A stretch of DNA of 64,000 bases, from the IMG/VR virus record IMGVR_UViG_3300031788_000007, positions 1-64,000 of that record. One strand, written 5' to 3'. The stretch's first letter is position 1, and each line of letters begins with the position of its first letter. The notes beneath the pieces were generated by a model. It was not told the origin of the DNA. It made no database searches and saw only the letters and a list, made by a program, of their open reading frames with translations. The stretch comes from a virus. Made by a program: the position numbers and the translations under genes. This document shows, piece after piece, positions 8,451 through 60,500 of this stretch.

Positions 8451-8480
8451 GCCCCCGGCTTCGGCTGGGGGCTTTCTTTT
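8451..8480 (+). terminator. strong rho-independent terminator
   Basis: GCCCCCGGC-TTCG-GCTGGGGGC followed by TTTCTTTT. Confidence 0.9.
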
Positions 8481-9077
8481 GCCCGGAACCCGGCCAGGGG
8501 CGGAACCGGCAGGGAACGAGGCACGACGTTGCCCCAGGACGCGCCGCCGCATCGGTGGACATACTACGGCACCCGGCAAACGCCAGCCGCAGGACGCCCA
8601 CAGCCAGCCCCAGCCGCCAGCCCCGCAGGGAGGGAAGAGCAGAGCATCCAAGAGGAGAGAGGCATAAGGTAGGAGACGGCACCGCAGTACCACCCTGTTA
8701 CATCGCACTTCCCCAGCCCAGCCAGCTATCGACGCCACCCGCCCGGCAGGCTGCACCGCTTTCAACCCGGCCCCCCGGCCCCTGCCCTGCCCGGCCCGCC
8801 CGCCCCGCGCCCCGCTCGACCGCCGCGCCGCCGCCGCCCCTCCTTCGACGCGCACAGGTGGGGGCAAGGGGGTCGGGTACCCCGTCGCCTTCGGCGACTA
8901 TGTCCATCAGCACAAAACCGAGTTCTCATTTTTGATGTAGGCAGGAAATAGATTTGATTTTGAATTTGAGATTTTAATTTTCAATTCAAGAAAAGTGGGA
9001 GATTTTAAATTTAGCAGTTGCAGGGTATTGTGTTTTGTGAGTGTGGGTTGTATGGTTTGTGAGAGGGTAAGACGGGG
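8481..9077. other. non-coding compositional switch (candidate genome terminus, pac or origin region)
   Basis: C-rich/GC-rich 8760-8850, GGGTACCC palindrome ~8876, AT-rich tract 8925-9012, then G/T-rich + strand. Confidence 0.45.
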
Positions 9078-13889: not shown

Positions 13890-16052
13890 ATGGGAATCCG
13901 TCGCGCAAATCCTCACTTAGAAGAAATTATTGAGGTGTTGGACCTCCATCTCCAAAAGTACAGTGGCGATCAAGCGAAGGCCCGCGAGTATCTTTCTAAA
14001 GATGACAATGCTTGGATAGATGCAGAGATACTCCACTGCATGACTGAGCGACGTTACTTCCTATCCAACTACTATGCCATCAAAACTGAGGACCGCGGCT
14101 TCACCGGGTTGTACCCGTTTTGGGATTCGCAGGAGATTCTGCATGACGAATTCCGCCGGCTGGAGAAGCAGTTTGGACGCGTAAAAGCAATCGTCAACAA
14201 GGCTCGACAGATGGGGGGCAGCACGTATGTCTCAGGGGAAGTCTTCGCGGCAACAATCTTCAGTGAGCATGTAAACTCCATCGTCGTAGCTCAGGACGCC
14301 GATGTGACCCGGTACATCCTCGATATGTACGCAGCGGCTCTTGACTTTTTACCGTGGTGGATGCGTCCCCGAATTCGCTATCAAGAGGCCGGAAAATTCA
14401 TCGACTTTGATGAGAAAGACGAAACCCTGCGAATCACTCGCCCAGGACTGAAGACGCGCATCTACGGAGACAACGGGAACAAGCCGACCGGAGTGGGGAG
14501 GTCTAAAACTTTCGCAAGAGCCCACCTCGACGAGTTGCCGTTCTGGACCGATCCAAGCCAACTTACTAAAGCACTATTCCCAACCTTCAACTCCCCCGAC
14601 GGCTTCTATGTAATGATTTCAACCCCTAAGGGGCGTAATAATCCTTGGCACAATATGTGGCGTAAAGCGGAAGCTGGAGACATTGACTGGAACCCGGTCT
14701 ATATTCCGTTTTACAGGCGCGAAAAGACGTACTCTCTGCCGATTCCCAAAGGCGAAGTCTTTACGTTGACGAAGGACGAGGAAGAGATAAAATACCTCGT
14801 TCTCAAAAAAGACGGCTTCGCGATGAAGAACGAAGTCTTCAACTGGCGCCGGAAGAGGATTCAGGAATTCATCGCTAACGATGGCGACGACAAAATGTTC
14901 AATCAGGAATACAGCCTTACCGCAGAGGAGTCTTTCCAGACCTCCGCAGTCACCGCATATCCGTTGGGCATCATCAACAAGCTGATGAAACGAGTGCTGA
15001 ACCCGAAGTGGATTGGGGAGATCAGTTACGACTTCGACGCTGGCCGGCCGAAGGTGATGGTCCGCGAAGTGGAGCCGACTGCCGACTTGGAGTATCCAAA
15101 GCACCACAACCGCTTCAGTGTATGGAAGCGTGAGCGGCCAGGCGCGGTCTATGTCGTAGGGGTGGACGTGAGCCTTGGAAACGACGGCGGCGACTTCTCA
15201 TCAGTCACGGTAATCGACATATCTCTAGACCTGCCGAAGGATGAAGTGGTGGCAGTGTGGCACGGCTATATTGATCCCGAGTCGCTGGCTGATGTAACTC
15301 TAGCAATTTGCTGGATGTACAACGAGGCTCTGGCGGCCGTGGAAGTAAATTCGATGGGCATGGTGACGAACAACAAGTTGGTCCGCCAGTACGAGTACGA
15401 GAACATCTATCGGTACAAGCACCTCGACAAACTGACTCATTGGATGACCGACATTATCGGCTTTTGGACGAATGACAAGACCAAGCGGGCCTTGATGTCG
15501 AAGATGTCGAAGACGCTGATTGATGACTTGCTCAACATTCCAGACAAATTCACCGTCGACGAGTTTTATGATTTCACTGAAGATGGAGCCGAGGGAGACG
15601 GGGCTAGGGACGACCTTATGATGAGTCTTCACATCGCTCTTTACTGCGGCCACGAGGCTGAGTACCGCGAGATGCGGGAGGGGACCAGCAAGCAGGAATC
15701 GACAAAGCAGCAGAATGAATTCAAAATCCTCGACCGATTCGGTACAATCATTCAGACGACGAACTCGCAGCATGAAGCGGAGCGAGTGTCGAAGAAGAAC
15801 ATCGGAAGCAGTATCGTGAGGACGGCGGGGGCGACCGCTACAGTCAACCTGAAGGGATTGGGGGAAAGGAAAGTACCTAGCGATTTTCAGAATAGCGAGT
15901 ACAGCCCTGTGTTTGACGGCAATGGGACGGCTTCGCGCATGTACGAGGACGGGATCGATCCGGAGCTGATAACTCCAGAGGCGATAGCCCAGTACGAGGC
16001 GGATCAGGCGGAACTGGACTCGGATGACGAGAATTCATGGCTTTATCAGTGA
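13890..16052 (+). CDS. terL: terminase large subunit
   Basis: KARQMGGST Walker A, HLDE Walker B, ISTP coupling motif, YVVGVDVSLG..GD/VEVNS/DD RNase-H nuclease; ~130-aa C-terminal extension. Confidence 0.95.
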   Translation: MGIRRANPHLEEIIEVLDLHLQKYSGDQAKAREYLSKDDNAWIDAEILHCMTERRYFLSNYYAIKTEDRGFTGLYPFWDSQEILHDEFRRLEKQFGRVKAIVNKARQMGGSTYVSGEVFAATIFSEHVNSIVVAQDADVTRYILDMYAAALDFLPWWMRPRIRYQEAGKFIDFDEKDETLRITRPGLKTRIYGDNGNKPTGVGRSKTFARAHLDELPFWTDPSQLTKALFPTFNSPDGFYVMISTPKGRNNPWHNMWRKAEAGDIDWNPVYIPFYRREKTYSLPIPKGEVFTLTKDEEEIKYLVLKKDGFAMKNEVFNWRRKRIQEFIANDGDDKMFNQEYSLTAEESFQTSAVTAYPLGIINKLMKRVLNPKWIGEISYDFDAGRPKVMVREVEPTADLEYPKHHNRFSVWKRERPGAVYVVGVDVSLGNDGGDFSSVTVIDISLDLPKDEVVAVWHGYIDPESLADVTLAICWMYNEALAAVEVNSMGMVTNNKLVRQYEYENIYRYKHLDKLTHWMTDIIGFWTNDKTKRALMSKMSKTLIDDLLNIPDKFTVDEFYDFTEDGAEGDGARDDLMMSLHIALYCGHEAEYREMREGTSKQESTKQQNEFKILDRFGTIIQTTNSQHEAERVSKKNIGSSIVRTAGATATVNLKGLGERKVPSDFQNSEYSPVFDGNGTASRMYEDGIDPELITPEAIAQYEADQAELDSDDENSWLYQ

Positions 16053-16959: not shown

Positions 16960-17589
16960 ATGCCAGCATTCAAGACGGAATTTAGCTGTCCGAAGTGCAA
17001 GCGTGAAACGGGGCAGTCGAACCAGATTTCAGCCGCCGAGGGAAGGTTGACGTGCCCGGCCAACTCGAATCATCGGTGGGACGACACCGCGGCCTTCTAC
17101 GCAGACGGGCCTCAAATGGAGTTCAAGGTAGGGCCGGCCAAGTTCCCACCTGTTGAGGGGCAGACGCCGATCACCCTGAAGATACCCTTGCGGATCAAGA
17201 CCGATCTATCCGCTCAGTGGGGGAGTGACGAGGCAGTTTCGGCCAGGGTAGCCGACATCCTTTTACAGATGGCCGAGGGCGAAGTGATGATCCTTGGGAT
17301 GACAGACAAAGGGCGTCTGTTTGACCGCCTTGGACAGAAGTTCTCAAATTCCAGTGAACTTGTTGGCATAGTCTATGCGAAGATGTGTGAAGTAGACGAA
17401 GCCAAGGGTGAGCGGGACGCAGCCGTAGAAGACCTAAAGGCTTACGAGTCGAGGTCGCCGGGGAGGGTTATCGTGGATTTGGGAGACCAGTTCGCAACCG
17501 CTCAGGCGAAGGCTAAGGATGCGGAGACCCCACTCAAGCTCTGGATCGAAGAGCGGACACGGATGGCACTTCAAGAGAACTGGTTTTGA
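16960..17589 (+). CDS. zinc-ribbon plus RHH-like/coiled-coil protein
   Basis: CPKC...CPANSNHRW; ITLKIPLRIK RHH-like strand. Confidence 0.6.
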   Translation: MPAFKTEFSCPKCKRETGQSNQISAAEGRLTCPANSNHRWDDTAAFYADGPQMEFKVGPAKFPPVEGQTPITLKIPLRIKTDLSAQWGSDEAVSARVADILLQMAEGEVMILGMTDKGRLFDRLGQKFSNSSELVGIVYAKMCEVDEAKGERDAAVEDLKAYESRSPGRVIVDLGDQFATAQAKAKDAETPLKLWIEERTRMALQENWF

Positions 17590-17600
17590 TAGGAACTCCA

Positions 17601-19436
17601 ATGACGCTGGACGATTTTCCCGAGATAAGGCAGAAGCCGAGCGAGGAAGATAAGCGGACCTCCTCACGAGCCGAGTATTACATCCAACTCAACAACTGGT
17701 GCGATTCGGTTGTAGAGGAGGGGATAGCACTCCAGCAGGACGTTCCTGAACTCAAGGACATCTCTAACGCCCTCGACTATCTGGTAGGGATGCAGTGGAA
17801 GGATGCAATGCCTTCCTACCGGGCGAAGCCGGTCTCGAACGAGTTCTTATCGATGTTCTGGGAGACGGTTGGGCTCATCACGGACATCCGGCCCACCTCG
17901 CACATCGTCGACATCTCCAACGACGGCAAGTATTCCGAGATTCAGAAAATCCTCAACAACTTGAATAAGGGCTGGGTATCGACCTCCGGGTACGAGCGCC
18001 GGATGGCGTTCTGCATCATGTGGGCGATGTTCACTTCGGCGCCGGCCATGCTGTACTATAACCCGTTCGCCAGGGGAGACAGCGGCGATCCCGAAGACGG
18101 CGACTTGACCCTTGAGGCTCTGCCGCCAAGCTCGATTCTGCGGTTGGGGATGGGTGAAGACCTTCAGGAAGACGAGTGCGTAGTCTATCGCAAGATGCGG
18201 ACGCTAGCGTGGATCAAGCGGGCCTACCCGACGATGGGCAAGTATGTTCAGGCCGAGGAGACCAAGAGCCGGTACACGGTCGACGTACAGAGTCCGATGG
18301 GCGTATCGCCGCAGTTGTACCCACCGCTATCGCCGGGCATGAAGCGGCTTTTAGGGGCAGGTGACAAACAATCCTACGAGAGCAACTTCCCCCAGGCCGA
18401 AGTGCAGCAGTTTCACCGGAAAGACGACTCGATCAATGAGGGTCGAGACAAGATTTGGATGGGTCCAAAGGGCGCACCTTGGGGATACTGGGTCGAGCCG
18501 GGGAAGAAGTTGTACCCCAGAGGCCGCTTATTCATCCGGGCCAACCGGGTCACCCTGTACGACCAGCCAAACCCCTACTTCCATCGGAAGAAGCCGTTCG
18601 CCTCTCTTGGGTTGTACGGAGTGCCGTGGCAGCAGTACGCGATGAGCGTAGTGAAGCCTTGGATGAGCCAGCAGGACATCTTGAATCAGATGATGGCTGG
18701 GATGCTCCAGACGGTAAAGAAGGCGATCAACCCTGCCTTGATGGCGGCCAAGTCAGCTATCAATCCAGCCGCGATGAAGGCGATCGACAGTTCCAAGCCG
18801 GGGTTGAAGATCACCTACAGCCAGAACGCGCCACATCCCCCAACGTGGCAGACGCCTCCAGTTCTGCCAACCTACGTCCTGCAAATCTACACGCAGATTC
18901 TCCAATCGATGAAGCAGAGTTCTGGAGCCGCGGCAATCGGGGATGCGCTCGGGAAGAAGCAGGTTCCTTCAGGAGACTCTCTCGACAAGATTCAGATGGC
19001 GAAGAACACCCCGATCCGGGTCATGGGCCGCAGCGTGGAATGGTTTGCCGACGACATTGGTCAACAGTGGTGCGCTGACGCCTTGCAGTTCTACAGCGCC
19101 GAGCGCCGGATGGAGTTGCTGGGCATGGCCGGTCTCACGAAGGAAGACATGGACGACAGGCCAGGTTCGCTCATCCCTGATGGAATCCAGTCAGAGGCAT
19201 TCGTAAGGCGCTACCACTATCGCACGGAGCGCGGAACCCTACTCCACGTCGAGCAGCAGGAGCGTGTTCCGATTGCGTTCGCTCTACGCAAGGGACGCGA
19301 CCTATCTCGGAAGCAGGTATTCAAGATCCTCAAGTGGAATATCGACCAACAGGCCAACGATGAAGAGTTGAAGGCTGAGGCCGCGGCAATGGCTCAGGCC
19401 CAAGCCGGCGCACCACCGAAAGCGGGGCATAAGTGA
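17601..19436 (+). CDS. portal protein
   Basis: ~610 aa between TerL and scaffold; NPYFHRKKPF...SVVKPWMSQQDILNQ pattern of podovirus-type portals. Confidence 0.85.
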   Translation: MTLDDFPEIRQKPSEEDKRTSSRAEYYIQLNNWCDSVVEEGIALQQDVPELKDISNALDYLVGMQWKDAMPSYRAKPVSNEFLSMFWETVGLITDIRPTSHIVDISNDGKYSEIQKILNNLNKGWVSTSGYERRMAFCIMWAMFTSAPAMLYYNPFARGDSGDPEDGDLTLEALPPSSILRLGMGEDLQEDECVVYRKMRTLAWIKRAYPTMGKYVQAEETKSRYTVDVQSPMGVSPQLYPPLSPGMKRLLGAGDKQSYESNFPQAEVQQFHRKDDSINEGRDKIWMGPKGAPWGYWVEPGKKLYPRGRLFIRANRVTLYDQPNPYFHRKKPFASLGLYGVPWQQYAMSVVKPWMSQQDILNQMMAGMLQTVKKAINPALMAAKSAINPAAMKAIDSSKPGLKITYSQNAPHPPTWQTPPVLPTYVLQIYTQILQSMKQSSGAAAIGDALGKKQVPSGDSLDKIQMAKNTPIRVMGRSVEWFADDIGQQWCADALQFYSAERRMELLGMAGLTKEDMDDRPGSLIPDGIQSEAFVRRYHYRTERGTLLHVEQQERVPIAFALRKGRDLSRKQVFKILKWNIDQQANDEELKAEAAAMAQAQAGAPPKAGHK

Positions 19437-19606
19437 TGGCCGATTCAGAAATGAGCAAAAAGATAGCCGAGCAGGACATCCCGAGAATCCTTGCCGCGAT
19501 TAAGAATGGGGTTGATTCCAAACAGTATTGGACATTGACGATCAAAGGCACTGACAACGGCGGGATCATCGACATTCGGCTAGTGAAAGAGCAGAGCTTC
19601 AAGTAG
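19436..19606 (+). CDS. small protein (56 aa, DUF2292-like)
   Basis: Translated by hand: MADSEMSKKIAEQDIPRILAAIKNGVDSKQYWTLTIKGTDNGGIIDIRLVKEQSFK; coupled to portal stop. Confidence 0.65.
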   Translation: MADSEMSKKIAEQDIPRILAAIKNGVDSKQYWTLTIKGTDNGGIIDIRLVKEQSFK

Positions 19607-19634: not shown

Positions 19635-19663
19635 TTGACGAAGCACGGACTGCGGATAATGAT
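19635..19663 (+). promoter_or_regulatory. sigma70-like promoter for head operon
   Basis: TTGACG-17 nt-AATGAT. Confidence 0.45.
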
Positions 19664-19670
19664 TCTCACA

Positions 19671-19856
19671 GGGCAAGAGTAGCGGTTACCGAGAAATCGG
19701 AGAGGCCGCAGCAGCCGCGCAAGGGAGAAATCCTGAGTGCGGCTTTTCTTTTGTCCGAGAGGCCCCAAATCTTTCCTGGGGGCAACCTCAGCGGTGGAGG
19801 CCGCCGGCCGAGCGATCGGTCGCAATAAAAAACCCAGGGGGCAACCCCGGAAAGGA
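19671..19856 (+). ncRNA. candidate structured RNA / leader with GNRA-capped hairpins
   Basis: Closing stem 19671-79/19748-56 enclosing twin GA-GAAA-TC hairpins; further GCAA and GCGA tetraloop stems. Confidence 0.65.
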
Positions 19857-19863
19857 CTACACC

Positions 19864-19914
19864 ATGGCACGCAAAAAGGGCCGCAAGGGTGGACGGAAGC
19901 ACGGCCGCAAGTAG
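19864..19914 (+). CDS. 16-aa protamine-like peptide MARKKGRKGGRKHGRK
   Basis: AAAGGA SD, ATG...TAG, 9/16 residues K/R. Confidence 0.7.
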   Translation: MARKKGRKGGRKHGRK

Positions 19915-19984
19915 TTCGCGGCAGTCAGCAGTAAACGGGGGGCGTTAACAGCGCCCCTCCATCACACCTCAAGGGGAGCATCCA

Positions 19985-20512
19985 ATGAAGAAGTCAGGCA
20001 TGGCCGAGAACATCGAGCAGGGCCACTACCTTGCTACCCCAAGCCCAAAATTGGGCAAGGGAACCTTCGATCAGGTGGGGACTTTCATAGACGAAGGCGA
20101 AATGACAACCACCACGCCAAAGGGCACGAGCGTCAACGTGAAGACCGGCAAGCTCCAGAACAACGAGAACGGATTCTAGTCCATGCCTCCAATGACACAG
20201 CCGCCGATGGCGCCGGATGTTCAAGCCCAGATGGGTGCTGGACCGCAGTTTGGGGCGGGCGTTGGTCAGGCGCAGCAGCAGATGGGGAAGAATCCGATTG
20301 AGCTTGCCGTGGGCACCGTGGAGAAAATCCTCAACGGGATTCAGGATGAAGCGATGCGCCCCTTCATTCAGAAGGCACTCGCCACCCTCAAGGTAGGTTT
20401 GGCGCAAGCACAGCAAAAACAACCACAGTCGGCCGGTATGGGGGCACCGCCTCCAGGTGGAGGCCCACCTCAGATACCGACGCCACCGACTCCGGGGCAG
20501 ATGCCGGGGTAG
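19985..20512 (+). CDS. two small head-module proteins (19985-20179, 20183-20512 Pro/Gln/Gly-rich)
   Basis: Adjacent ORFs between portal and scaffold; GGGGAG SD before the first. Confidence 0.7.
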
Positions 20513-21539: not shown

Positions 21540-21766
21540 GTGGTGAGGCAGGCGGGACGCCTTGAGTTCCCGCAACTGCAATTCTCCAAGGAAGCATGGG
21601 TCCATGCGGAGCCTGAAGGGATAGCAGGGATGAGTTGAACGGGAAGCCGAGAGGCCGAGCCTGTGAGACTAGGGCGACAACGGCGAAGGCCGCGGTAATC
21701 AAACATCTCTGGCCCAATAGGGCGCTCGACAAGGGCTCAACCCGAGTCGAAGAAAGCAAAGGGCTT
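21540..21766 (+). ncRNA. candidate structured RNA in scaffold-MCP spacer
   Basis: At least 6 short hairpins (GCGGGA/TCCCGC, GCATGG/CCATGC, GCC-GAGA-GGC, CGGC-GAAG-GCCG, GCCC-AATA-GGGC, TCGAC/GTCGA). Confidence 0.55.
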
Positions 21767-22735
21767 ATGCTTACGTGGAATGATCTCACGGGCAAAACGA
21801 ACGATCATATCGTTCCGATCATCACCGACAACGTGTTCAAGTCTTCGCCGGTATTCACCCGCCTCCGCAAAAAGCGGAGATTCGCATTTCCCGGCGGCTT
21901 GACCATTCGCCATAACATCATGTACGCGCCGCTGAAGGGCGGGTTCTTCCAGCGCGGCCAAGCCTTTGACACCTCGGCAGTGCAGACGGACACGGCTCTT
22001 CAGTTCAACCTGAAGTACGCCTATGTGAACGTCACGCTGTATGGTGTGGATCAGGTTCTCAACCGCGGCGCAGAAGCCGCGATGAGTTACGTCTCCTCGA
22101 AGATGGTGAACGCTTCGGGCACGATGGCCCAGATCCTCGGCACCTCGGTCTTCGGTGACGGCCAGGGTACGCTGAACTCAACTCTTGAGTTGGATGGTTT
22201 ATCGGCGGCTGTTGACAACGGCGTGAACTACGCAACTTATGGTGGCATCACCCGGTCGGACATCTCCAGCACAGCGAACACTGGCATCAACTCTTACTAT
22301 GCGGCGCCATCGGCCTTTAACCTTTCTCAAATCCAGACAGCCTTTGGTGCGAGTTGGTTTGGGCAGGAGAAGCCGGACATGCTGCCGACCACGCAGCCGG
22401 TGTGGGATGCGTTCTGGAACAAGCTCCAGCCGCAGCAACGGTTCAACGACGAGACCTCCGACGTTCACGTTGGCTTCAAGTCGTTCAACTGGAACGGTGC
22501 GCAGGTGGTGGTTGACCAGTACCTCTCGGTCCTGGGCGGAACCTACACGATGTTTGGTCTCAACACCAACTACATCTACCTGTACGTCTCCGATGTGCCG
22601 AAGTACCAGTTTGGATTTACGGGCTGGAAGGAAGCGCAGAACACCGACGATGTGGCCGGACAGTATATGTTCGGTGGCAACATGGTTGTTGCCGCATCTC
22701 GCTTGATGTTCAGAGAGGCATTCACGGCCCTGTAA
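21767..22735 (+). CDS. major capsid protein (HK97 fold)
   Basis: 322 aa after scaffold; DNVFKSSP..., LQPQQRF, GFKSFNWNGAQVVVD patterns; highly biased codons. Confidence 0.9.
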   Translation: MLTWNDLTGKTNDHIVPIITDNVFKSSPVFTRLRKKRRFAFPGGLTIRHNIMYAPLKGGFFQRGQAFDTSAVQTDTALQFNLKYAYVNVTLYGVDQVLNRGAEAAMSYVSSKMVNASGTMAQILGTSVFGDGQGTLNSTLELDGLSAAVDNGVNYATYGGITRSDISSTANTGINSYYAAPSAFNLSQIQTAFGASWFGQEKPDMLPTTQPVWDAFWNKLQPQQRFNDETSDVHVGFKSFNWNGAQVVVDQYLSVLGGTYTMFGLNTNYIYLYVSDVPKYQFGFTGWKEAQNTDDVAGQYMFGGNMVVAASRLMFREAFTAL

Positions 22736-51516: not shown

Positions 51517-54500
51517 GTGGCAGTTCTCGACCAGACCGAGGCTCAAATTCCTGTCGGGTTGACCCCAATCCCACTCGGGCAAGCGCCATCTAGTGAGGCA
51601 AAAATCCCTGCCGGGCTTACTCCTATCCCACTCGGTAGTCAGCAATCGAGTCCAAATTTTGGAGTGAAGTCGCAGACTCAGGCGACTCACGCCGTTACCC
51701 CTCCAGTAGATGTAAAGAGTTCTATCCCTGCCGGATTGACGCCCATTCCTAAGGAAGATTCTCACGTTGACGCTTTCATGGCGGGAATCAGGAAGCCAGC
51801 GGCTCTCCGTCAGCAGGTCTACGACTACACAGTGGGGTCTGGTTATAACGCAGACCAAGGACGCCAGCGCCAGAATGAGTACGACTACGCCATCAAGAAC
51901 GGGATGAACCCACAGCGAGCGCAGGAGTTCGCCCTGGGGATGCAGTTCGAGGGCGGGACACCGAAGTACAATCTCACAGACCAAGAGAAGTCCGATCTCT
52001 ACGGGAAGGCGAAACAGGCCGCAGAGGGATTTAAGAGCGGCCAGCAGAAAACGATTGAAAGTCATTTCCTTGGAGAATCATTATTGCCGGGGGATGACGA
52101 AACATATCGTCAAAACATCGACCCCGACGAATACGCAAGAAACTATGTCAAGGGGTATACCTACGCTCGGTCTCAGGGATGGGATGAAGGGAAGGCGCAA
52201 GAGTACGCCACGTCTGATGCCGCATCGCAGTGGATGACTCGGGCTGGAGAGTGGATTGATCCGAAGTGGCACTCCGTCAAAAGCGCGATTCTCAACGTCA
52301 TTCCCGGCATCTCGAAGCCGGAGGAGAGAGCGGAGAACCCGTTCTTTGCGACGAATCAGGGGTATCGAGAGAATCAGTTCCACGTCTACCATGAGGCTGC
52401 TTGGCTGGATGAGCACGTAGGCAAGGTAGCTGGCAGCGTAGACGCTGGGCTCGGAAACGTGGTCAACGGCTTTTCTACTCCCGGCATGGCAGCATTGATG
52501 GTTGCCAGCGAAGGGCAGGGACTTCTTGCCCGTGGCGGTATAGGGGCGGCCGAAGAAGTCGAGACTGCGAATCTGGCTACACGTGCACTTGGAAGGGTGG
52601 CGCGGGCCGGGGGAAGACAACTTGGCCGGTCGGCAGCGGCAAGCGAGGAGATTGATTCAGCGCAGGCTCTCAGGGCGGCAGAGAACGCAGAAAAGGCCAT
52701 CCGAGCAATTCGTGACGCGAGACTTCCTGTGTCGGCACAGAAGGTGGCGAGAACGTTCAATAAACTCGTCACGGTAGGCTTTACGGCTCAGATGGCGCAA
52801 GGTTCCGCTGAACAACTGGAGCAGGCCGCTAAAACCGCGTTCCCCGGAGAAGGGAAGGACGGCGACAGTGCGCTGGCTGTCGAGTATGCGGTTGAGGGTC
52901 TTGTCAGCGGGTTGATGGCCGTGCAGGGTGGAAACCATCTTCGGCATGAGCATCTTCTCACGTCCGATCTCAACTCAAAGACCGCCGAGATGTACGGGCC
53001 GCAAAAGCTCTCGGATGTTGGCGGCTTACATGAGGGTCCGAGACAGAACGCCGCGACCAAATTTGGCGACCTCGACCCGTATCGACAGGCCGCAGTCATT
53101 CAGCGGTTGATTGAAGATGATCCGAAGTATAAAGCCGCAGAGGATGCAAGCGAGAAGGAGCAAAAGCGGCTTGCGAAGAAGATAGCCTACCGCTACAACA
53201 CAGCATTGCAGCAGGCGTGGAATCCCAACGCGGTAGATCGCATGGTGCGGGTGATTGACAACCATCGCGCAGCGAACGAATGGTACGGCGCAAGACAGAA
53301 GGCGGAGGATGAGGCTCGGAAGCACTACCTCGACCAGATCACGAAGCTCATTGACCTCCACAAGCAAGACAAAGCCGACGAAGAGGAACTTGTTAAGGCT
53401 GAGGCAGAGCGCCGGGCCGCGGCAAGGGAAGGCCGTCCGGTACGGAAGACTGTAGACGCGCAGAAGAGGGAAGAGAGTCGCAAGGTAACTCTGACGAACG
53501 CGGCGCAGATTGCCGAGCATCGGCAGGGGGTAGTAGATGCCCGCGATGTAGCGGATAAGGAAACGGCCGAGCAGGAGAGATCGGAGGCTCAGGACTCCAC
53601 CACGAACTCTCAAAAAGAATGGGACGATCGGTATGCTCGCGTCTACGGTATGCACGCCAGGAATAACCCTGATTGGTCTATGCCTCGTCTCCACGGTGAG
53701 ACGCTAGATATTGTCGGAGAAAGGCCCAAGGAGGATAAACAGGGAGAGTTACGCCACCCGGACGAGGTGACCGACGACCAAGGGTATGTGTCGTACCGTA
53801 GTCAGGTGTTTGGAGGGGAAGAGCACCACTTCGGCGTAGCTCAGACTCCAGACGGGAAGTGGGGAGTCTATCGGAAGACGCCGGATGGGATTGAATACCT
53901 GGGAGCCGGGGGAATCTTTGACGGCCAGCCGCAAGAAAGCTACCTTGCGCCCAATGAAGAGACGGCCAAGGCTCTCGCTCAGATCACTTCCCTTCGGGTC
54001 AATGCCGATTACGCTCTTGAGGAGCATGGAACCACGCCGGAGCGGGAAGCGGAACGGAAGCAACTCCGCGACTTAGAGCACAGTCTGGTAGATGGCACGA
54101 TCACGGGAGAGCAAGCACGCAAAGCCGCCGGACTGCCGGAGGAAGCGCAAGAAGCGCAGGCCAAGGAAAAGGCTAATCACGAGATCGAAGCCGCCAGAGC
54201 AGGAGCATTGAACGGTCCCCTTCACGGCAGAACGAAAGCTCAATACGAAGACGAGTTCCTTGCTGGGCTGGAAGAGGCGGGATGGGAGCCGGAGACGATC
54301 GAAGCGATGATCGACACCCTCCCTCTTCAACTTCGGATGGAGGCTGAGAACAATCTCCACTACGTCGGCCGTTCGGGAGACTGGATTGCCTCGAAGAAGG
54401 GTGTGACCTGGGTTCTCGACTCGAAGGGCATGTTGCAGCCGGACGATGGGATGAGTGCGCCGATCCCACTGATGAAGAATGGCCGCTACTCGACGCAGGC

Positions 54501-57500
54501 AATCGATCTGTCAATGTCGGGAAGGGTTGGATTCGGGCAGCGCAGTTGGGAAGACGCCAAAGTTGAAGAAGCGAAGGAGCGCGAAGCCAATCAGCAGTTG
54601 GAGAATCTTGTCGGAAACGTAGCCGATGAACTCCAGAGAGCCATTGAACTCTCGAAGCAGAACGCTGGCTTACAGATGGAAGCCGGGGAACTCCCTCTTG
54701 AGCGGCCGGCGCCGAAGCCGAGAAGCAGGTTCGCACCTCCAGTCGAAGGCCAAATGGCGGAATCTCCCGAGCGGGAGACTGACCGGGCCGTACAGGAAGG
54801 TCACGAGGCCATCCAAGCCGAGCAGAGGGCATTCGATGAAGCGTGGATTACCTTCATGGCCGAGGATCTGGCTGCGAACCATGAGACTCCGTGGCAGTTG
54901 ATTGAGAGGGTAGCCAAGAACAGCGGCATGACCCCGCAGGAAGTCTTGGCTCTCCAACTTGAGCGGTTGGCTCCTACAGACACCGTAGACGGCAGGATTC
55001 AACGGTTGAAGGCCGGGGACACCATCACCGACAAGATGGGCTTGCCGTGGGTGGTGAGGGCCGACAGGAACGGAACTCTGTATCTCCGTAAGGGGCAGGG
55101 AGCCAGAATCCACGTCAACAAGTTCAAGCCGTCAGACGACGTGCGGAGGATTGTTGGAACGGGAGAAGTTCAGCCGGCGCCAGGGCCGCGGTGGACTCCC
55201 GAAGACGTGCGGAAGGCCGCTTATGAACCTGCCTACATATCCCGCCGCAATGAAGTCATTGAAGAGGTGAAGCAAAGAGAGACGGGAGAGATTAAGGAGC
55301 ATCCACCGGCCACGCCAGAGGTTGCGGAGCGGCAAGCGGTGGCGGCAGAAGACCGTGAAACTCAGGTGAACGATGCGGCAGTAGCGGCAACCGCTGCGGC
55401 TGTTGATCCTCCACCAAAGGCGACCGACAAAGAGATCGACGAAGCCATTTCTAAGGCCGAGGAATTGCGGAAGGTTACCGAGGCCGCAGCGAGACAGGCG
55501 GCAGCCGCCAGAGGGCGCACAGCCGGGCCGGGAGAGTACCCACAGAAGGCGCCCATCACATCGAAGAGGGTTCCAGGGAGAGCATGGGCCGTAGGGCATG
55601 ACGGCTATATCCAGACGATCGCCAGCAAGATTCCCATGCACCGCGAACTCGTTAAATTGAATCAACTCACTCCATCCTTCAGATGGAACGGAAATATGCT
55701 AGAGAGGGTTACTGAGTATCCAGAGCAGATGCAGGATGTCCCCCCCGACGAAGCGACACGTTCACAACTTCTAGCAGATGCCCAGCCGGTCAGGTATGAC
55801 GTTGACCAATTTCTCGACCCAGGTTACGGCCCCGAGCGGGGACCGTCCATTGTGGACATTGGCGGCGATGTAGTTGGAGGGAACCGCCGCTTGCTCAGGA
55901 TGCTGAAGTACCTTGAGTTGATCCATGGAGACAAGGAAGCTCTTGCCGCGTTTCGAGCCAAGATGGCCGAATACGCCGGGAAGAACGGGATGGTGTACCC
56001 AGAGGGAGATGAAATCTACATCCCAGTTCGGATGCTTGACGAGCCGATAGGGACGATAGCCAAAGCGACTGAGTTAGGGCACTTATTCAACAAGAAGGCA
56101 TCTCATGGAATCGACGAAAACGCGAAGTCGATCACCTATGGACGGATGCTTTACGAAGCCCAGAGGACGGAAGAGGCACTAGGACGCAATGGAGTTCTGG
56201 ACCGTATAGCCGATGAGTTCAATAGAGCCGAGACGCCGCGAGATGCAATGGCTAACAAACCTGGATTCTTCGCCAATATAGTGCGAAATGAACTCGGGAT
56301 AGGCGGTGAAGATCAATCAGATTGGTTTAACAAAAACCCGAAGGGAGAATATGAGTTTCTGAGTACGAATGGTAAAGAGAAGCTAGAGAAAGCCCTGCTT
56401 GCCACCGTATTGAAGAATCCGTCTACGATCGACGCATTGGGAAGCTCGACGGCCTACGATTCGTTGCTGAAGTCGATTGGCCCTCTCACGCGCTTACGTG
56501 CCGTTCCAGACAAGGACATCATCAGTGTCATCGAAGAGGCAATTTCAGCCACGGCCACGACCGAGCGGAAAAGGGTTGATGGAGACTCCCCGAGGGTACG
56601 GTGGAATAAGACATTTGGAGAGCGAGAGTTTTTCTCGGACGAGAAGCCCCTCGATGAGCCGGGCCGGATGGTGGAAGCGATTTGGAGGGCATTGCATGAC
56701 CGGAAGACCACACGGTTCAAGAACGCTCTCAATGATTATTTGGTAGGCGAGGGAACCCAGCGTGGATTCTTTGACCCGGCAGAGCATGGATTGAAGACTC
56801 CCGCCGACCTTTTCAATGCGGCCTTCGAGGATGAACTGAAGGACGTGCGCGACTCTCGTGGACTGCAATTGGATGAGGCGAAGAGCGGGAAGTTCAAGGG
56901 CGATAACGCAAGTGGGATGAGAACATTCCTCGACACGCTTTCTTGGGAACTTACTCAGGATCAATTCGACGCTGCTCTTGAAAACCGCGACAATTACGGT
57001 GACGAATCGGTTGAGGATGCGAAGCGGTCAGAGGAAGGGAAGCCGCCACAGGAAGCGCCGAAGCCTGAAGGCGTGTCGAAGAAAATGTTCATCACGAAAC
57101 AAGATGAACGTGACCTGAAAGGACTCGGTTGGAAGCAAGAGCAGATCAATGCGATGAAGCCCGAAGAGGCGCAGGAGATTCTGTCTCTCGGGAAGCAAGC
57201 GCCGAAAGGGTTCAAGCCCCCAGAGCCCCCAGCGCCGAAGCCAGAAGCCGACCTCTCAGCGGCCAAAGCCGAGAAAGGCTACGTCACCCCCGACGAACTG
57301 GAGAAGTTCATCTCTGACCATCCGGCCACCGCAGATCATGCTCCTGAGATCATGCGTACCGCAAGGATGATGGCAGAGTATGTCTTCGATTCAGACCCAC
57401 CGGAGGGAGTGGAGAAGAAAGACGCTCTCGCCTGGGTGTTGGAGCAGCGCGTAGCAAAGTTGGCCTATGAGGAAAAGGGGAAGGGGAGAGGCTCCTACTC

Positions 57501-60500
57501 TGACCCCGAGATCGAGAAGGGCATTGGCACCCGCATTTTGAAGTTGACGAAGGCTTCAGATGAGACGACCTTCATCCATGAGTTCGCGCACGTCATCTTC
57601 CCGATGCTCTCTCAAGAGGACATGCGGGCCATCGACACGATCACCGGAGAGAAGGGTGAGCACTGGAAGCATGGCGACCCGCTCCGCGGCGAAGCCTACA
57701 AAACTGTCAGCGAGAAGTTTGCGCACGGGCTTGAGAAGTTCCTGCGGGACGAGAACCCGACCGGCTTTAGTGCTGAGGTGAAGAAGGTACTCGCCAAGGT
57801 CAAGGAGATGTTCCAAGCGGCCTATCTTCGGTTCCGTAGCGACCCGCTCTCGACGTTCAATCTGAGTGAGGACGCGAAGGAAGTCTTTGCGAATATGTTC
57901 CACATCGAAGACCTCGACCCCGCAGACGACTTCAGAAAGCAGCGAGAGGAAGCTCGCAAAGCAGACGCCAAGCAGAAGAAGGGCATGGTGAAGCCGGAAG
58001 CGGCTTTGCACCCAATTCAGCAGTTGGCGAAAGACCTGGGGCCGAAGCCAGTCCAAATTTTGGAGTCGATTGACGGATCGGTTGAGGATTCTTCAGGGGA
58101 GCGCGTGGACCCGTCGAAGCCGATGGCTGCATTCGTTTACGACGATGAAGAACATGCAGCGCAAGCCTATCTAAAAGCCGCAGAGGAAGGCTCTGGCGTG
58201 GCCGGCGTGGAGTTCGTGCAGACGAAGGACGGAAAGTACGCTGTCCGGTTCAACGTCAAGGCCAAGGTGCCAAAAGACATTCTCTATCAGGACGCGCAAG
58301 AGAAGCACCCCGGCCTGAGACTTGAGGACATGGAAGCGAAGTTGAAGACGACAACCTCGCCGATCCTGAAGAAGTTCCTTGAGACTCAGATTGGCAGGTT
58401 GAAAGCGGAGATCCGTAACGAGCCAAGGCCGCAGGTAGAACCCGGTTTGGCGAAGCAGGCAATCGCGGAGGTGAAACGTGGCACAGAAGGGCGAAAGACA
58501 GACACGGGACGAGCGGGGGTATCCGACTTACGAGGAGTACCTGATGGAAATCCTGGGGATGCAAAGCAAGCAGGAGTTGGACGACTTTCTCGGCCGCCCA
58601 TCATGGGGATGCCTGGACATGCAAGTGCCGGAGGTGCCGCCGATCGAAATAGACCCGGAGGAGGAAGTTCTCAGCCAGTTAACCTCGCAAACGTAACGCC
58701 GGTCAGACTCCAGCCGTTCGAGAGGGGGCGCGGAACACCAGTTGGCATCCTCGCCGGAGAGAAGTTTGACGAGAAGGTGTGGAGAGATGGCCTAAAGAGG
58801 GCTGGCCTTCCAGAGAACATGCCAGCGCCGACAGTGACGCTCTCCCCCGAGGTTGCTCGGACATTGAAGTATGCAGGACAGAAGCAGATCGTTCAGACCG
58901 TCCTATCAGCACTGGAGCAAGGAGACGGGGCTGTGATTGCATCTGTGGCGGGTTCCGGCAAGACATGGACGGAGATGGGTGTGGTTAAGGAAACGATCCT
59001 TCGGAACCCCGACGCCAAAGTTCTTGTCATCACCATGAATCGCGGATTGCTAGAAGAGGGCGACGATGCCGTTCGACAGGTAGCGAAGAACGGCTACGAT
59101 TTGAAGGTTGAAACCGACATCCTCGACAAACCTCCCGAGCCGGGTGTTTACGGGGCAACCTACCAGCGGTTGCTCAATAACTCCATCTACGCTCAAACGC
59201 AGTGGGACTTGGTGATCGCCGACGAGTCAGGAGCAGCGCGTAACTGGTACAGAGATGAAAACCAGCAGGGCAAACTCCTGAAGGCTGTGATGGACAACGC
59301 CAAGAAGGGTGTGTACGTCTCGGCGACTCCGTTCCATTCGCCTAACGAATACGGCTACGCCGAAAAGTTGAACTTGTGGCCGAAGGGAGGATTTGAAGAC
59401 TGGATCAAGAACAACTTTGCCCACGAGAAAATCGGCGACAAGGTGGTTGCGAAGCTCGACCCGGCAAAGCAGGCAAAACTACGTGAGCAGATGGTTGAGC
59501 GTGGGCAGTTCATCTCGCAGCAAATCTCCTACGATGGATTCTCTGTCCACTTCGGAGTGGTCCCTGTAACCGACGTGGTGGAACGGAAGCTAGACCGCAT
59601 CCATCAAGGAATTGCAGTTATGAAGAGGGAGTTGCTGAAGCAGGGCAAGAAGGGACTCTCTGAGCGGGTATCTGCTTTTGAGGCGACGTACACGAAAGCC
59701 TATCTTGAGCGGTCGAGACTGCCAGAGGCCATCGAAGTCGCAAAGAAAGCAAGAGCGCAGGGATGGCAGGTAGCCATATTCTCAGAAACCACATCTGAAG
59801 ACCTTTTCCGCCGGCCGGTTGGCCCGAAGGAGGAGCCGGGAACGTATCGTCTGTTAGACGAGGAAACCGGCGGCCAAATATCGCGCATCATGCCAGAGTT
59901 CCCGAACATTGCGGACGAACTCAAAGCCGAGTTTGGCGATGAGATGGGTGATTACAGCGGCGTTGGGAATACCGACGCGCAGCGCGAAGAGGCGAAGCAA
60001 GCCTTTTTGAAGGGGAAGAAGAAAGTTCTCTACACTTCATATGCCGCAGGAGGAATCGGCATCAACCTGCAAGACAAAGACGGAGATAAGCCAAGAATCT
60101 CCATCTTCCTTGGGCCGCCGTACTCTGGAATTCTACTCGAACAATCATTGGCGAGAACGTGGCGATTGGGAGTGAAGTCGAACGCGAGGGCGGTGTTCCT
60201 TGCGACAGACTCAGAGCCGGACATTCGTTTGATGGCTACAAAGATTGGGCCTCGCATGAGGGCGTTGAGCGCGGCGGTTCTAGGCGACCGTGATTCTTTG
60301 GCTTCGGTGATGACGAACTACACCGACGAAGAGAAGATGCGTGAACATCAGGACATGATGGCGTTCGACCAGGGCAACGAAGTGAAGGTTGACGCTCAGG
60401 GCTTCCAAGTGCGGAGCAAGCGGAAGGTCAATTTCGACAACTGGAGTTCGATCACCTTCCCGAACGCTGAAGAAGCCAAGAACAAAGGTATGCAGGTGGA

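Follow-up and report, generated by a model that had tools for sequence, protein, structure and literature searches.

Put at its safest, the element described here is a conserved, cis-located leader of a phage head-gene mRNA. Judged from its sequence, it is an RNA family not contained in Rfam and of a familiar kind, namely a terminator-like hairpin followed by an array of hairpins next to the SD. What is new are the particular architecture and the association with a protamine-like micro-ORF, and a search of the literature found no described equivalent, either of a protamine-like phage peptide or of a late-operon leader with a terminator. The structured leader spans 19670-19866 on the + strand, with an untranslated part of ~195 nt, and consists of a three-way junction (module 1) and a hairpin array leading up to the ribosome-binding site (module 2). 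The individual features are given in Table 1.

The leader lies in a 64,000-nt stretch (hereafter the window) that makes up the first 64 kb of an IMG/VR record of 78,982 bp, which is linear and ~81% complete according to CheckV. All long ORFs of the window are carried by the + strand, and the leader lies in the interval that separates the head genes from a 57-codon ORF located 3′ of the portal gene. Beyond the large terminase, the portal and the major head protein (MCP), a PHROGs search recognised nothing, and a Pfam search of 30 ORFs, in which an antiterminator, a sigma factor and an RNA-binding protein were sought, gave zero matches above the curated cut-off. None of the MCPs of cultured phages is more than 31% identical to that of the present phage, Myxococcus phage Mx9 giving the top match, and blastn against cultured phages gave no match. 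The sequencing runs containing the stretch are, almost without exception, peat metagenomes; a 1.6-kb contig with an MCP identity of 92% has been binned in an uncultured Acidobacteria MAG, and this one contig points weakly to Acidobacteria as the host of the phage. Two further features of the window stand apart from the leader. A giant ORF of 3828 codons extends over 51517-63003, and before the MCP there is a long gap (21540-21770) with a moderate folding signal (z = -2.38; 6/200 shuffles as good), the true MCP start probably lying near 21767, given that the PHROG match sets in at residue 45 of the frame that opens at 21635.

Table 1 Features of the leader, its surroundings and the RNA contigs covering it
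Feature	Position	Strand	Basis or remarks
Large terminase	13890-16052	+	PHROGs
Portal	17586-19436	+	PHROGs
57-codon ORF, 3′ of the portal gene	end at 19606	+	
Sigma70-type promoter	19635-19663	+	consensus scan; TTGACG-17-AATGAT
-35 element, TTGACG	19635-19640	+	consensus scan
-10 element, AATGAT, after a 17-nt spacer	19658-19663	+	consensus scan
Predicted start, A within conserved (C/T)AG	19670	+	promoter register
Module 1, three-way junction	19671-19756	+	fold and covariation
Closing helix	19671-19679 with 19748-19756	+	MFE fold
Arm 1	19682-19709	+	outer stem, 1x3 internal loop, 4-bp inner stem, GAAA loop
Arm 1 tip, CCGA-GAAA-UCGG	within 19682-19709	+	
Arm 2	19713-19744	+	tip GGGA-GAAA-UCCU
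Arm 2 hairpin with U-run UUUUCUUUU	19713-19752	+	terminator/pause sequence features
U-run UUUUCUUUU	19744-19752	+	immediately after arm 2
Module 2	19757-19863	+	R2 covariance model and covariation
P3, inner stem CCCCA/UGGGG	19759-19789	+	
P4, GCGG-UGGAGG-CCGC	19791-19804	+	loop UGGAGG
P5, CGGCCGA-GCGA-UCGGUCG	19805-19822	+	
A-run	19824-19832	+	
P6	19834-19850	+	core GGGG-GCAA-CCCC, 19837-19848
SD GGAAAGGA	19849-19856	+	directly 3′ of the P6 core
Micro-ORF, 16 codons and stop, MARKKGRKGGRKHGRK	19864-19914	+	first reading frame of the transcript
GC-rich hairpin without U-run, between micro-ORF and next ORF	19936-19958	+	sequence
Next ORF, ATG	19985	+	
Major head protein (MCP)	21635-22735	+	PHROGs, match from residue 45
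Contig of run X4	19691-19996		word depth 33; Illumina adapter directly before 19691
Contig of run X22	19691-19860		
Contig of run X20	19711-19887		depth 49
Contig of run X21	19857-19993		adapters on both sides

Relatives of the leader were gathered by an MCP search, which gave 41 viral contigs, and by DNA-pattern scans anchored on the P6/SD region, which gave further viral and metagenome contigs. After deduplication, 33 distinct leader homologues from peat and soil contigs were obtained, and the covariance model of module 2 (R2) recovers all of them at 51 bits or more. Matches of R2 at 19-33 bits in unrelated contigs were set aside as sequences fetched by the search pattern and not members of the family. 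Eight unrelated contigs (L048, L053, L054, L055, L058, L068, L077 and L078) carry, with small variations, the unit UCAACCCAGGGGCUUCGGCCCCAGAAAGGACACCAUG, a UUCG-capped hairpin immediately 5′ of an SD and ATG that stands ahead of several different genes; the unit looks like P6 and the SD of the leader, but the search pattern itself retrieved it. Within the phage's own genome no second copy of the leader was found.

The leader appears to be transcribed from its own promoter. The sequence-only reading had placed a promoter just upstream and the structure at the beginning of the capsid-gene transcript, immediately 3′ of that promoter, and both placements were borne out. The register is kept in the 29 aligned leaders, where an AT-rich stretch, a -35 element TTGAC or TTGC, a -10 element AAnnAT and, seven bases on, the trinucleotide (C/T)AG are all fixed relative to one another. 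A weight matrix derived from the relatives scores 27.9 bits at the promoter of the window; since the runner-up in the 79-kb genome reaches 13.2 bits, within the range of shuffles (up to 17.9), the promoter is, as judged by the matrix, the operon's own and the sole one of its type in the genome. Transcription is predicted to start at ~19670, at the first base of the structure, and because the promoter register is conserved among the 29 leaders, the structure begins at the predicted +1/+2 in every relative. The -35 variant TTGAC(G/A) is found in 10/24 junction-bearing and 0/5 junction-less leaders of this alignment, a slight hint that stronger promoters may accompany the junction.

The structure as a whole is well supported by its folding energy. 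The + strand of 19660-19870 has an MFE of -92.1 kcal/mol and a z-score of -3.98, which 0/200 shuffles equal, while the - strand of the same segment gives z = +0.42; the assignment to the + strand in the sequence-only reading thus holds, and every stem that it had listed is present in both the sequence and the MFE fold. It had also recognised no known family, and Rfam 15 agrees, with 0 matches at gathering thresholds in the 64-kb window and 0 in 15 homologous loci. The best matches of a permissive Rfam scan have E-values of 1.3 or more and at most 17 bits against cut-offs of 50-80 bits, which is chance level. MAFFT with RNAalifold applied to whole leaders did not recover the stems, owing to register shifts, and a column-pair scan of module 1 was overwhelmed by purine/U-run pairings; both were replaced by covariance-model alignments. 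Covariation among collected homologues, by which the sequence-only reading had proposed to check the structure, is found in module 1 across 26 loci and in module 2 across the 33 leaders.

Of the two modules, the junction is the one with the stronger thermodynamic signature. Folded alone (19670-19760), module 1 has z = -5.23, its MFE structure is identical to the centroid and accounts for 43% of the ensemble, and the same junction was the MFE structure in 24 of the 24 homologous segments collected at that stage. In the family, the closing helix is formed by the 5′-most bases of the transcript, with the consensus GGCAAAG, and by the U-rich stretch plus a few further nucleotides behind arm 2. In arm 1, a small, asymmetric internal loop separates the outer stem from an inner stem of 4 bp, which is capped by a tetraloop; this tetraloop is GNRA in about two thirds of the sequences and not GNRA in about one third. 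Arm 2, a long GC-rich hairpin, is conserved at its base (AGCCGC/GCGGCU) and variable at its tip.

The covariance model of the junction (R1) finds exactly one copy per locus in 26 loci and no further copy in the window. In the R1 alignment, which was fitted to the model and so favours the structure, 76% of the cells pair compared with at most 47% when the partners are slid, two-sided changes occur in 22 of the 33 pairs with all four helices contributing, and 110 cells carry double changes versus 45.8 ± 5.9 in shuffles (0/500 reach the observed number). Compensatory exchanges can also be read directly from the raw sequences, as in the outer stem of arm 1, which appears as GCGGUU/GGCCGC, GGAGUU/GACUCU, GGACC/GGUCC, GGCUU/AAGCC and GUGACU/AGUCAC. 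An attenuator-style strand exchange between the stems of arms 1 and 2 was considered and dropped, as it is possible in the window's sequence only.

While the stems of the junction are maintained, the loops are not. The resemblance of the two arm tips in the window had earlier been taken to indicate duplicated protein-binding sites; the twin GA-GAAA-UC tips, however, occur in few relatives and are no feature of the family, so that this proposal was abandoned. The closest relative, L087, already has UUCG as the arm 2 loop, and across the family the arm 2 loops are GAAA, GAGA, UUCG, UAAC, UUUA, GCAA and others. Since stable tetraloops exchange freely among relatives, the comparison points to loops that act as structural caps rather than as sequence-specific sites, and the twin loops of the window are, by the same comparison, an accident of interchangeable stable tetraloops.

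The junction is also not universal, being present in 26 of the 33 leaders and absent from seven (L017, L083, L112, L063, L137, L021 and L026). In six of the seven, a short 5′ hairpin starting at +1/+2 takes its place, and in L083 and L026 this hairpin retains GGCAAG paired to CUUGC, as if it were the closing helix with both arms deleted. The junction-less forms belong to at least three sequence types of module 2, each with junction-bearing sequences as its nearest relatives; gain or loss of the junction therefore appears to have happened more than once. A helix at the extreme 5′ end, as counted from the predicted start, is found in 32 of the 33 leaders and is the sole feature shared across the junction-bearing and junction-less forms. 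Such a helix fits a role in 5′-end protection. Stabilising stem-loops at the 5′ terminus are known from bacterial mRNAs, for example the ompA 5′ UTR, and the leader resembles them in placing a helix within 1-2 bases of the predicted 5′ end in nearly all relatives. In contrast to them, the helix here is the closing element of a junction that measures 86 nt and has two covarying arms, which goes far beyond the needs of end protection.

The second conserved property of module 1 is the U-run behind arm 2. The arm 2 stem has a stability of ~-21 kcal/mol and the U-run lies ~75-83 nt after the predicted start, so that arm 2 with UUUUCUUUU has the sequence features of an intrinsic terminator, a GC-rich hairpin with a U-run immediately after it. 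A hairpin with a U-rich run of at least 7 U, usually with one interruption, is present in all 24 junction-bearing relatives inspected, despite changes in stem and loop. Main weight is carried by the fact that the run stays U, since a plain helix strand could drift to G-C pairs, and from this we infer that arm 2 and the U-run form an intrinsic terminator or a pause signal. A hairpin-plus-U-run scan of the + strand of the 79-kb genome gave three strong sites only, at 8473, 19744 and 78158; as the signal is this rare and is kept in relatives, it seems neither common nor accidental. The two other strong signals, at 8451-8481 and 78133-78166 (+ strand), are likely true terminators that split the one-strand gene array into a few transcription units. 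Comparison of the relatives revealed no conserved alternative fold in module 1 that could serve as an antiterminator, and no gene for antitermination or another regulator was recognised by Pfam among the 30 ORFs.

A leader of this kind recalls the late leader of phage lambda, in which the promoter PR′ is followed by the 6S RNA and the terminator tR′, which is read through with the help of Q. Both have a sigma70-type promoter before structural genes and a hairpin with a U-run within ~100-200 nt, and as in lambda, late expression in the present phage would depend on read-through. Unlike the lambda leader, no Q-like gene or Q-binding element was found here, the U-run is paired to the first bases of the transcript via a three-way junction, and the whole module is optional.

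RNA-library contigs covering the leader were found in four peat metatranscriptome runs from four studies and together span 19691-19996; such contigs carry no information on ends, strand or level, and DNA carry-over is possible. Contigs from three of the four studies bridge the U-run, which is supportive of the existence of read-through RNA or else reflects DNA carry-over in the libraries. Termination, if it occurs, is therefore incomplete. The word depth in run X4 is 33 over the leader, 0-8 over the upstream portal gene and 11-14 over the downstream head genes. Contigs from two studies share the first base 19691, which lies 21 nt after the predicted start and inside the stem of arm 1. The coincidence is a weak hint of a fixed 5′ end nearby; it could stem from the customary failure of library preparation to retain the 5′-terminal nucleotides of an RNA, or mark a site of processing. 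The segment 19670-19690 has no contig cover, which is not to be taken as absence of RNA. At the other side, X21 and X4, two runs from different studies, have contigs that end at 19993 and 19996, respectively, and the X4 depth falls from 33 to 14 behind the hairpin at 19936-19958, an equivalent of which is seen in relatives; the leader and the micro-ORF may accumulate as a separate stable RNA.

In contrast to the optional junction, module 2 is present in all 33 leaders. Taken alone, it is not unusually stable (z = -0.72, with a diffuse ensemble), and its support is accordingly conservation and covariation rather than thermodynamics. On a MAFFT alignment of 29 leaders made from sequence alone, 90.9% of the cells in P3, P4 and P6 pair versus at most 59.5% when slid, nine module 2 pairs change on both sides, and 0/500 shuffles reach any of the measures. 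The model-fitted R2 alignment of all 33 leaders gives 93.7% versus at most 58.5%, with two-sided changes in 11 of the 17 pairs and covariation in hairpins P3, P4 and P6. The most regular of these is P4, which is 100% paired in the 33 leaders with all four pairs covarying, and its loop always has the form UG...GG, frequently with GGAGG. P5 forms a clean hairpin in the L014 type as well as in that of the window, and is degenerate in the L018 type. The linkers of the module, that is GAUCGC after P3, GUAC before P4, the A-run and CCCAGGGCGA, are conserved in sequence as strongly as the stems. A pseudoknot between the GGAGG of the P4 loop and a CCUCC in P3 was rejected, being broken in several relatives with GAGUGG loops.

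The hairpins reach directly to the SD, and the sequence-only reading had suggested a competing pairing next to it. The complementarity itself stands, CCUGGG at 19775-19780 being complementary to CCCAGG at 19833-19838. More generally, the P3 3′ strand (CCGGGG or CUGGGG) is complementary to the P6 3′ strand together with the beginning of the SD region (CCCGGAA or CCCAGAA), and AUCGC is able to pair with GCGAU of the P6 loop. One position changes in step across three strands, with C-G replaced by U-A in five sequences (CCGG/CCGG versus CUGG/CCAG), and columns 35/153 of the alternative helix show five double changes. In most relatives, the SD is paired in the predicted ensemble to the loop and the 3′ strand of P3, and the SD/P3 duplex has a mean energy of -13.8 kcal/mol as against -4.8 for shuffles. 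The alternative helix pairs in 82.3% of the cells, a figure to be read beside the 69.6% that a slide by one column (-1) still yields; at the level of individual pairs its covariation is not above that of shuffles (151/500 reach it), and the P3 loop alone shows beyond-chance complementarity to the SD in 4/29 sequences only. Sequestration of the SD by alternative pairing is thus a hypothesis with which the sequences are compatible. Like SD-sequestering operators and riboswitch platforms, the leader has conserved hairpins abutting the SD and a P3 3′ strand complementary to P6 and the SD; unlike the riboswitches and leaders in Rfam, it has no similarity to any of them.

Two peculiarities of module 2 are restricted to the window and its closest kin. 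In the window's subclade, CCUGGGGGCAACCUC (the P3 3′ half, 19775-19789) is an almost identical direct repeat of CCCAGGGGGCAACCCC (P6, 19833-19848), and each can form a small GCAA-capped hairpin; the feature is absent from most relatives. The tip of P3 in the window is similar to what we take to be the helix 45 region of 16S rRNA, a likeness confined to the same subclade.

Module 2 and the micro-ORF are never found apart, and the module borders in every case on the SD and ATG of this ORF. In each of the 33 relatives, an ATG 6-13 bases behind the SD opens a frame, 12-27 codons long, for a peptide rich in Lys, Arg, Gly and His, like the one in the window. The length of the frame changes in frame across relatives, and a group beginning with MFETKRG displays synonymous third-position changes (TTC/TTT, GAG/GAA, CGT/CGC and GGC/GGA/GGT). 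The region is T-poor, so that an open frame by itself proves little; nevertheless, the combination of an SD and an ATG with indels that keep the frame and with synonymous changes makes it likely that the micro-ORF is a real gene. Its product may be protamine-like or resemble arginine-rich motifs.

Taken as a whole, the leader is best accounted for as a composite cis-acting element that protects the 5′ end, contains a terminator or pause signal and controls how the micro-ORF is translated, an explanation in which we place moderate confidence; a cis-regulatory role, as proposed in the sequence-only reading, remains the best-fitting account of its function. According to this model, the operon's own sigma70-type promoter would produce the head-morphogenesis mRNA from a start near 19670 with a ~195-nt 5′ untranslated leader that acts in cis. 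The first bases of the transcript would pair with the U-rich stretch behind arm 2, and the 5′ end, buried in this helix, would be protected against 5′-end-dependent decay. At ~80 nt from the start, arm 2 with its U-run would function as a leader terminator or pause that limits or times entry into the operon, and polymerases passing the U-run would give the full mRNA with the junction closed. As module 1 is dispensable in 7/33 relatives, its role would be modulatory. The four hairpins of module 2, leading up to the ribosome-binding site, most likely set how frequently the micro-ORF is translated, with the head genes behind it perhaps under the same translational control. One possible route would be the alternative pairing of the P3 3′ strand with the P6/SD region.

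An unlikely explanation would be that the leader plays a purely passive part in the mRNA, as a stabiliser of the 5′ end and a set of spacer hairpins that engage in no termination or switching and have no ligand or protein partner. The hairpins would then protect the head-gene mRNA and keep its ribosome-binding site exposed, in agreement with the 5′-terminal helix common to both leader forms, the free interchange of stable tetraloops, the RNA contigs that continue through the U-run and the weak covariation count of the alternative SD pairing. However, the U-run is conserved as a sequence and not just as a helix strand, and such signals are rare in the genome. Moreover, linkers as conserved as the stems (GAUCGC, GUAC and the A-run with CCCAGGGCGA) would not be expected of spacers.

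It is quite unlikely that module 1 is released as a Y-shaped small RNA of ~80 nt acting in trans on the host or the phage, with the head genes served by read-through. The layout of a promoter, a compact stable fold and a hairpin with a U-run would suit such an RNA, as would the ability of its 5′ and 3′ ends to pair, which is seen in many stable RNAs. Covarying pairs of the closing helix nevertheless lie beyond the expected stop, where GGC pairs with GCC or GUC after the U-run; since covariation extends past this point, it is the read-through form that appears to be under selection. No conserved single-stranded seed region is present either, and in the seven relatives that lack module 1 the promoter still drives the operon. 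The RNA-library contigs gave no sign of a discrete short RNA, although contigs would not reveal one.

An antiterminator, also among the suggestions of the sequence-only reading, is retained as a minority view, and the two arms directly behind a promoter invite comparison with the put sites of phage HK022. The putL RNA is ~70 nt long, consists of two stem-loops and lies just downstream of PL (PMC9378689). Put activity involves conserved polymerase-contacting nucleotides in both stems and the suppression of downstream terminators. Compared by description only, module 1 is like putL and putR a two-armed RNA of ~70-85 nt directly behind a promoter; unlike in put, its arms are not conserved in sequence, and it has a built-in terminator-like signal and a closing helix. 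Two more novel ideas have, between them, a slender chance of being right. A put-like RNA of a non-lambdoid lineage may fold during the pause at its own hairpin and U-run and bind the polymerase, making transcription of the head and tail genes resistant to terminators; alternatively, the Lys/Arg/Gly micropeptide may bind its own leader and feed back on termination or translation. That module 1 works in the manner of HK022 put itself, the nascent RNA binding its own polymerase to confer resistance to pauses and terminators along the head/tail operon, is very unlikely: the size and the position of the arms (two in 86 nt from +2) and the long one-strand gene array downstream would agree with it, but the arms vary freely with only the arm 2 base and the U-run conserved, the description of put includes no strong terminator-like signal of the kind found inside module 1, and module 1 is dispensable in the seven junction-less relatives. 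Finally, a packaging RNA, which had also been proposed from the sequence alone and would here resemble the phi29 pRNA, or an RNA scaffold binding the basic micropeptide or the portal, is scarcely credible, as the three-way junction with its paired 5′/3′ helix beside the portal gene and the very basic peptide encoded directly behind the leader are outweighed by arm loops that are both GAAA, mutually non-complementary and independently variable in relatives, by the location within an mRNA leader, by the ordinary large terminase of the phage and by the absence of the junction from 7/33 relatives.

Few structured leaders are known from operons of phage structural genes, and the leader described here adds to them a well-supported covarying family, with 33 variants from many peat and soil samples in a phage lineage with almost no recognisable protein families. 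Its layout is modular, the core being module 2 with the micro-ORF and the optional part being the junction that ties the U-run to the 5′ end, and the natural deletion variants of module 1 constitute a natural experiment. Should the terminator reading be true, these phages, which likely infect Acidobacteria, would be expected to possess an unknown mechanism of antitermination or timing for their late genes. If the micropeptide does feed back on its own leader, the leader and the micro-ORF would represent a self-contained RNA-peptide regulatory unit, and if the translational reading is true, it would explain how a potentially toxic protamine-like peptide is dosed.
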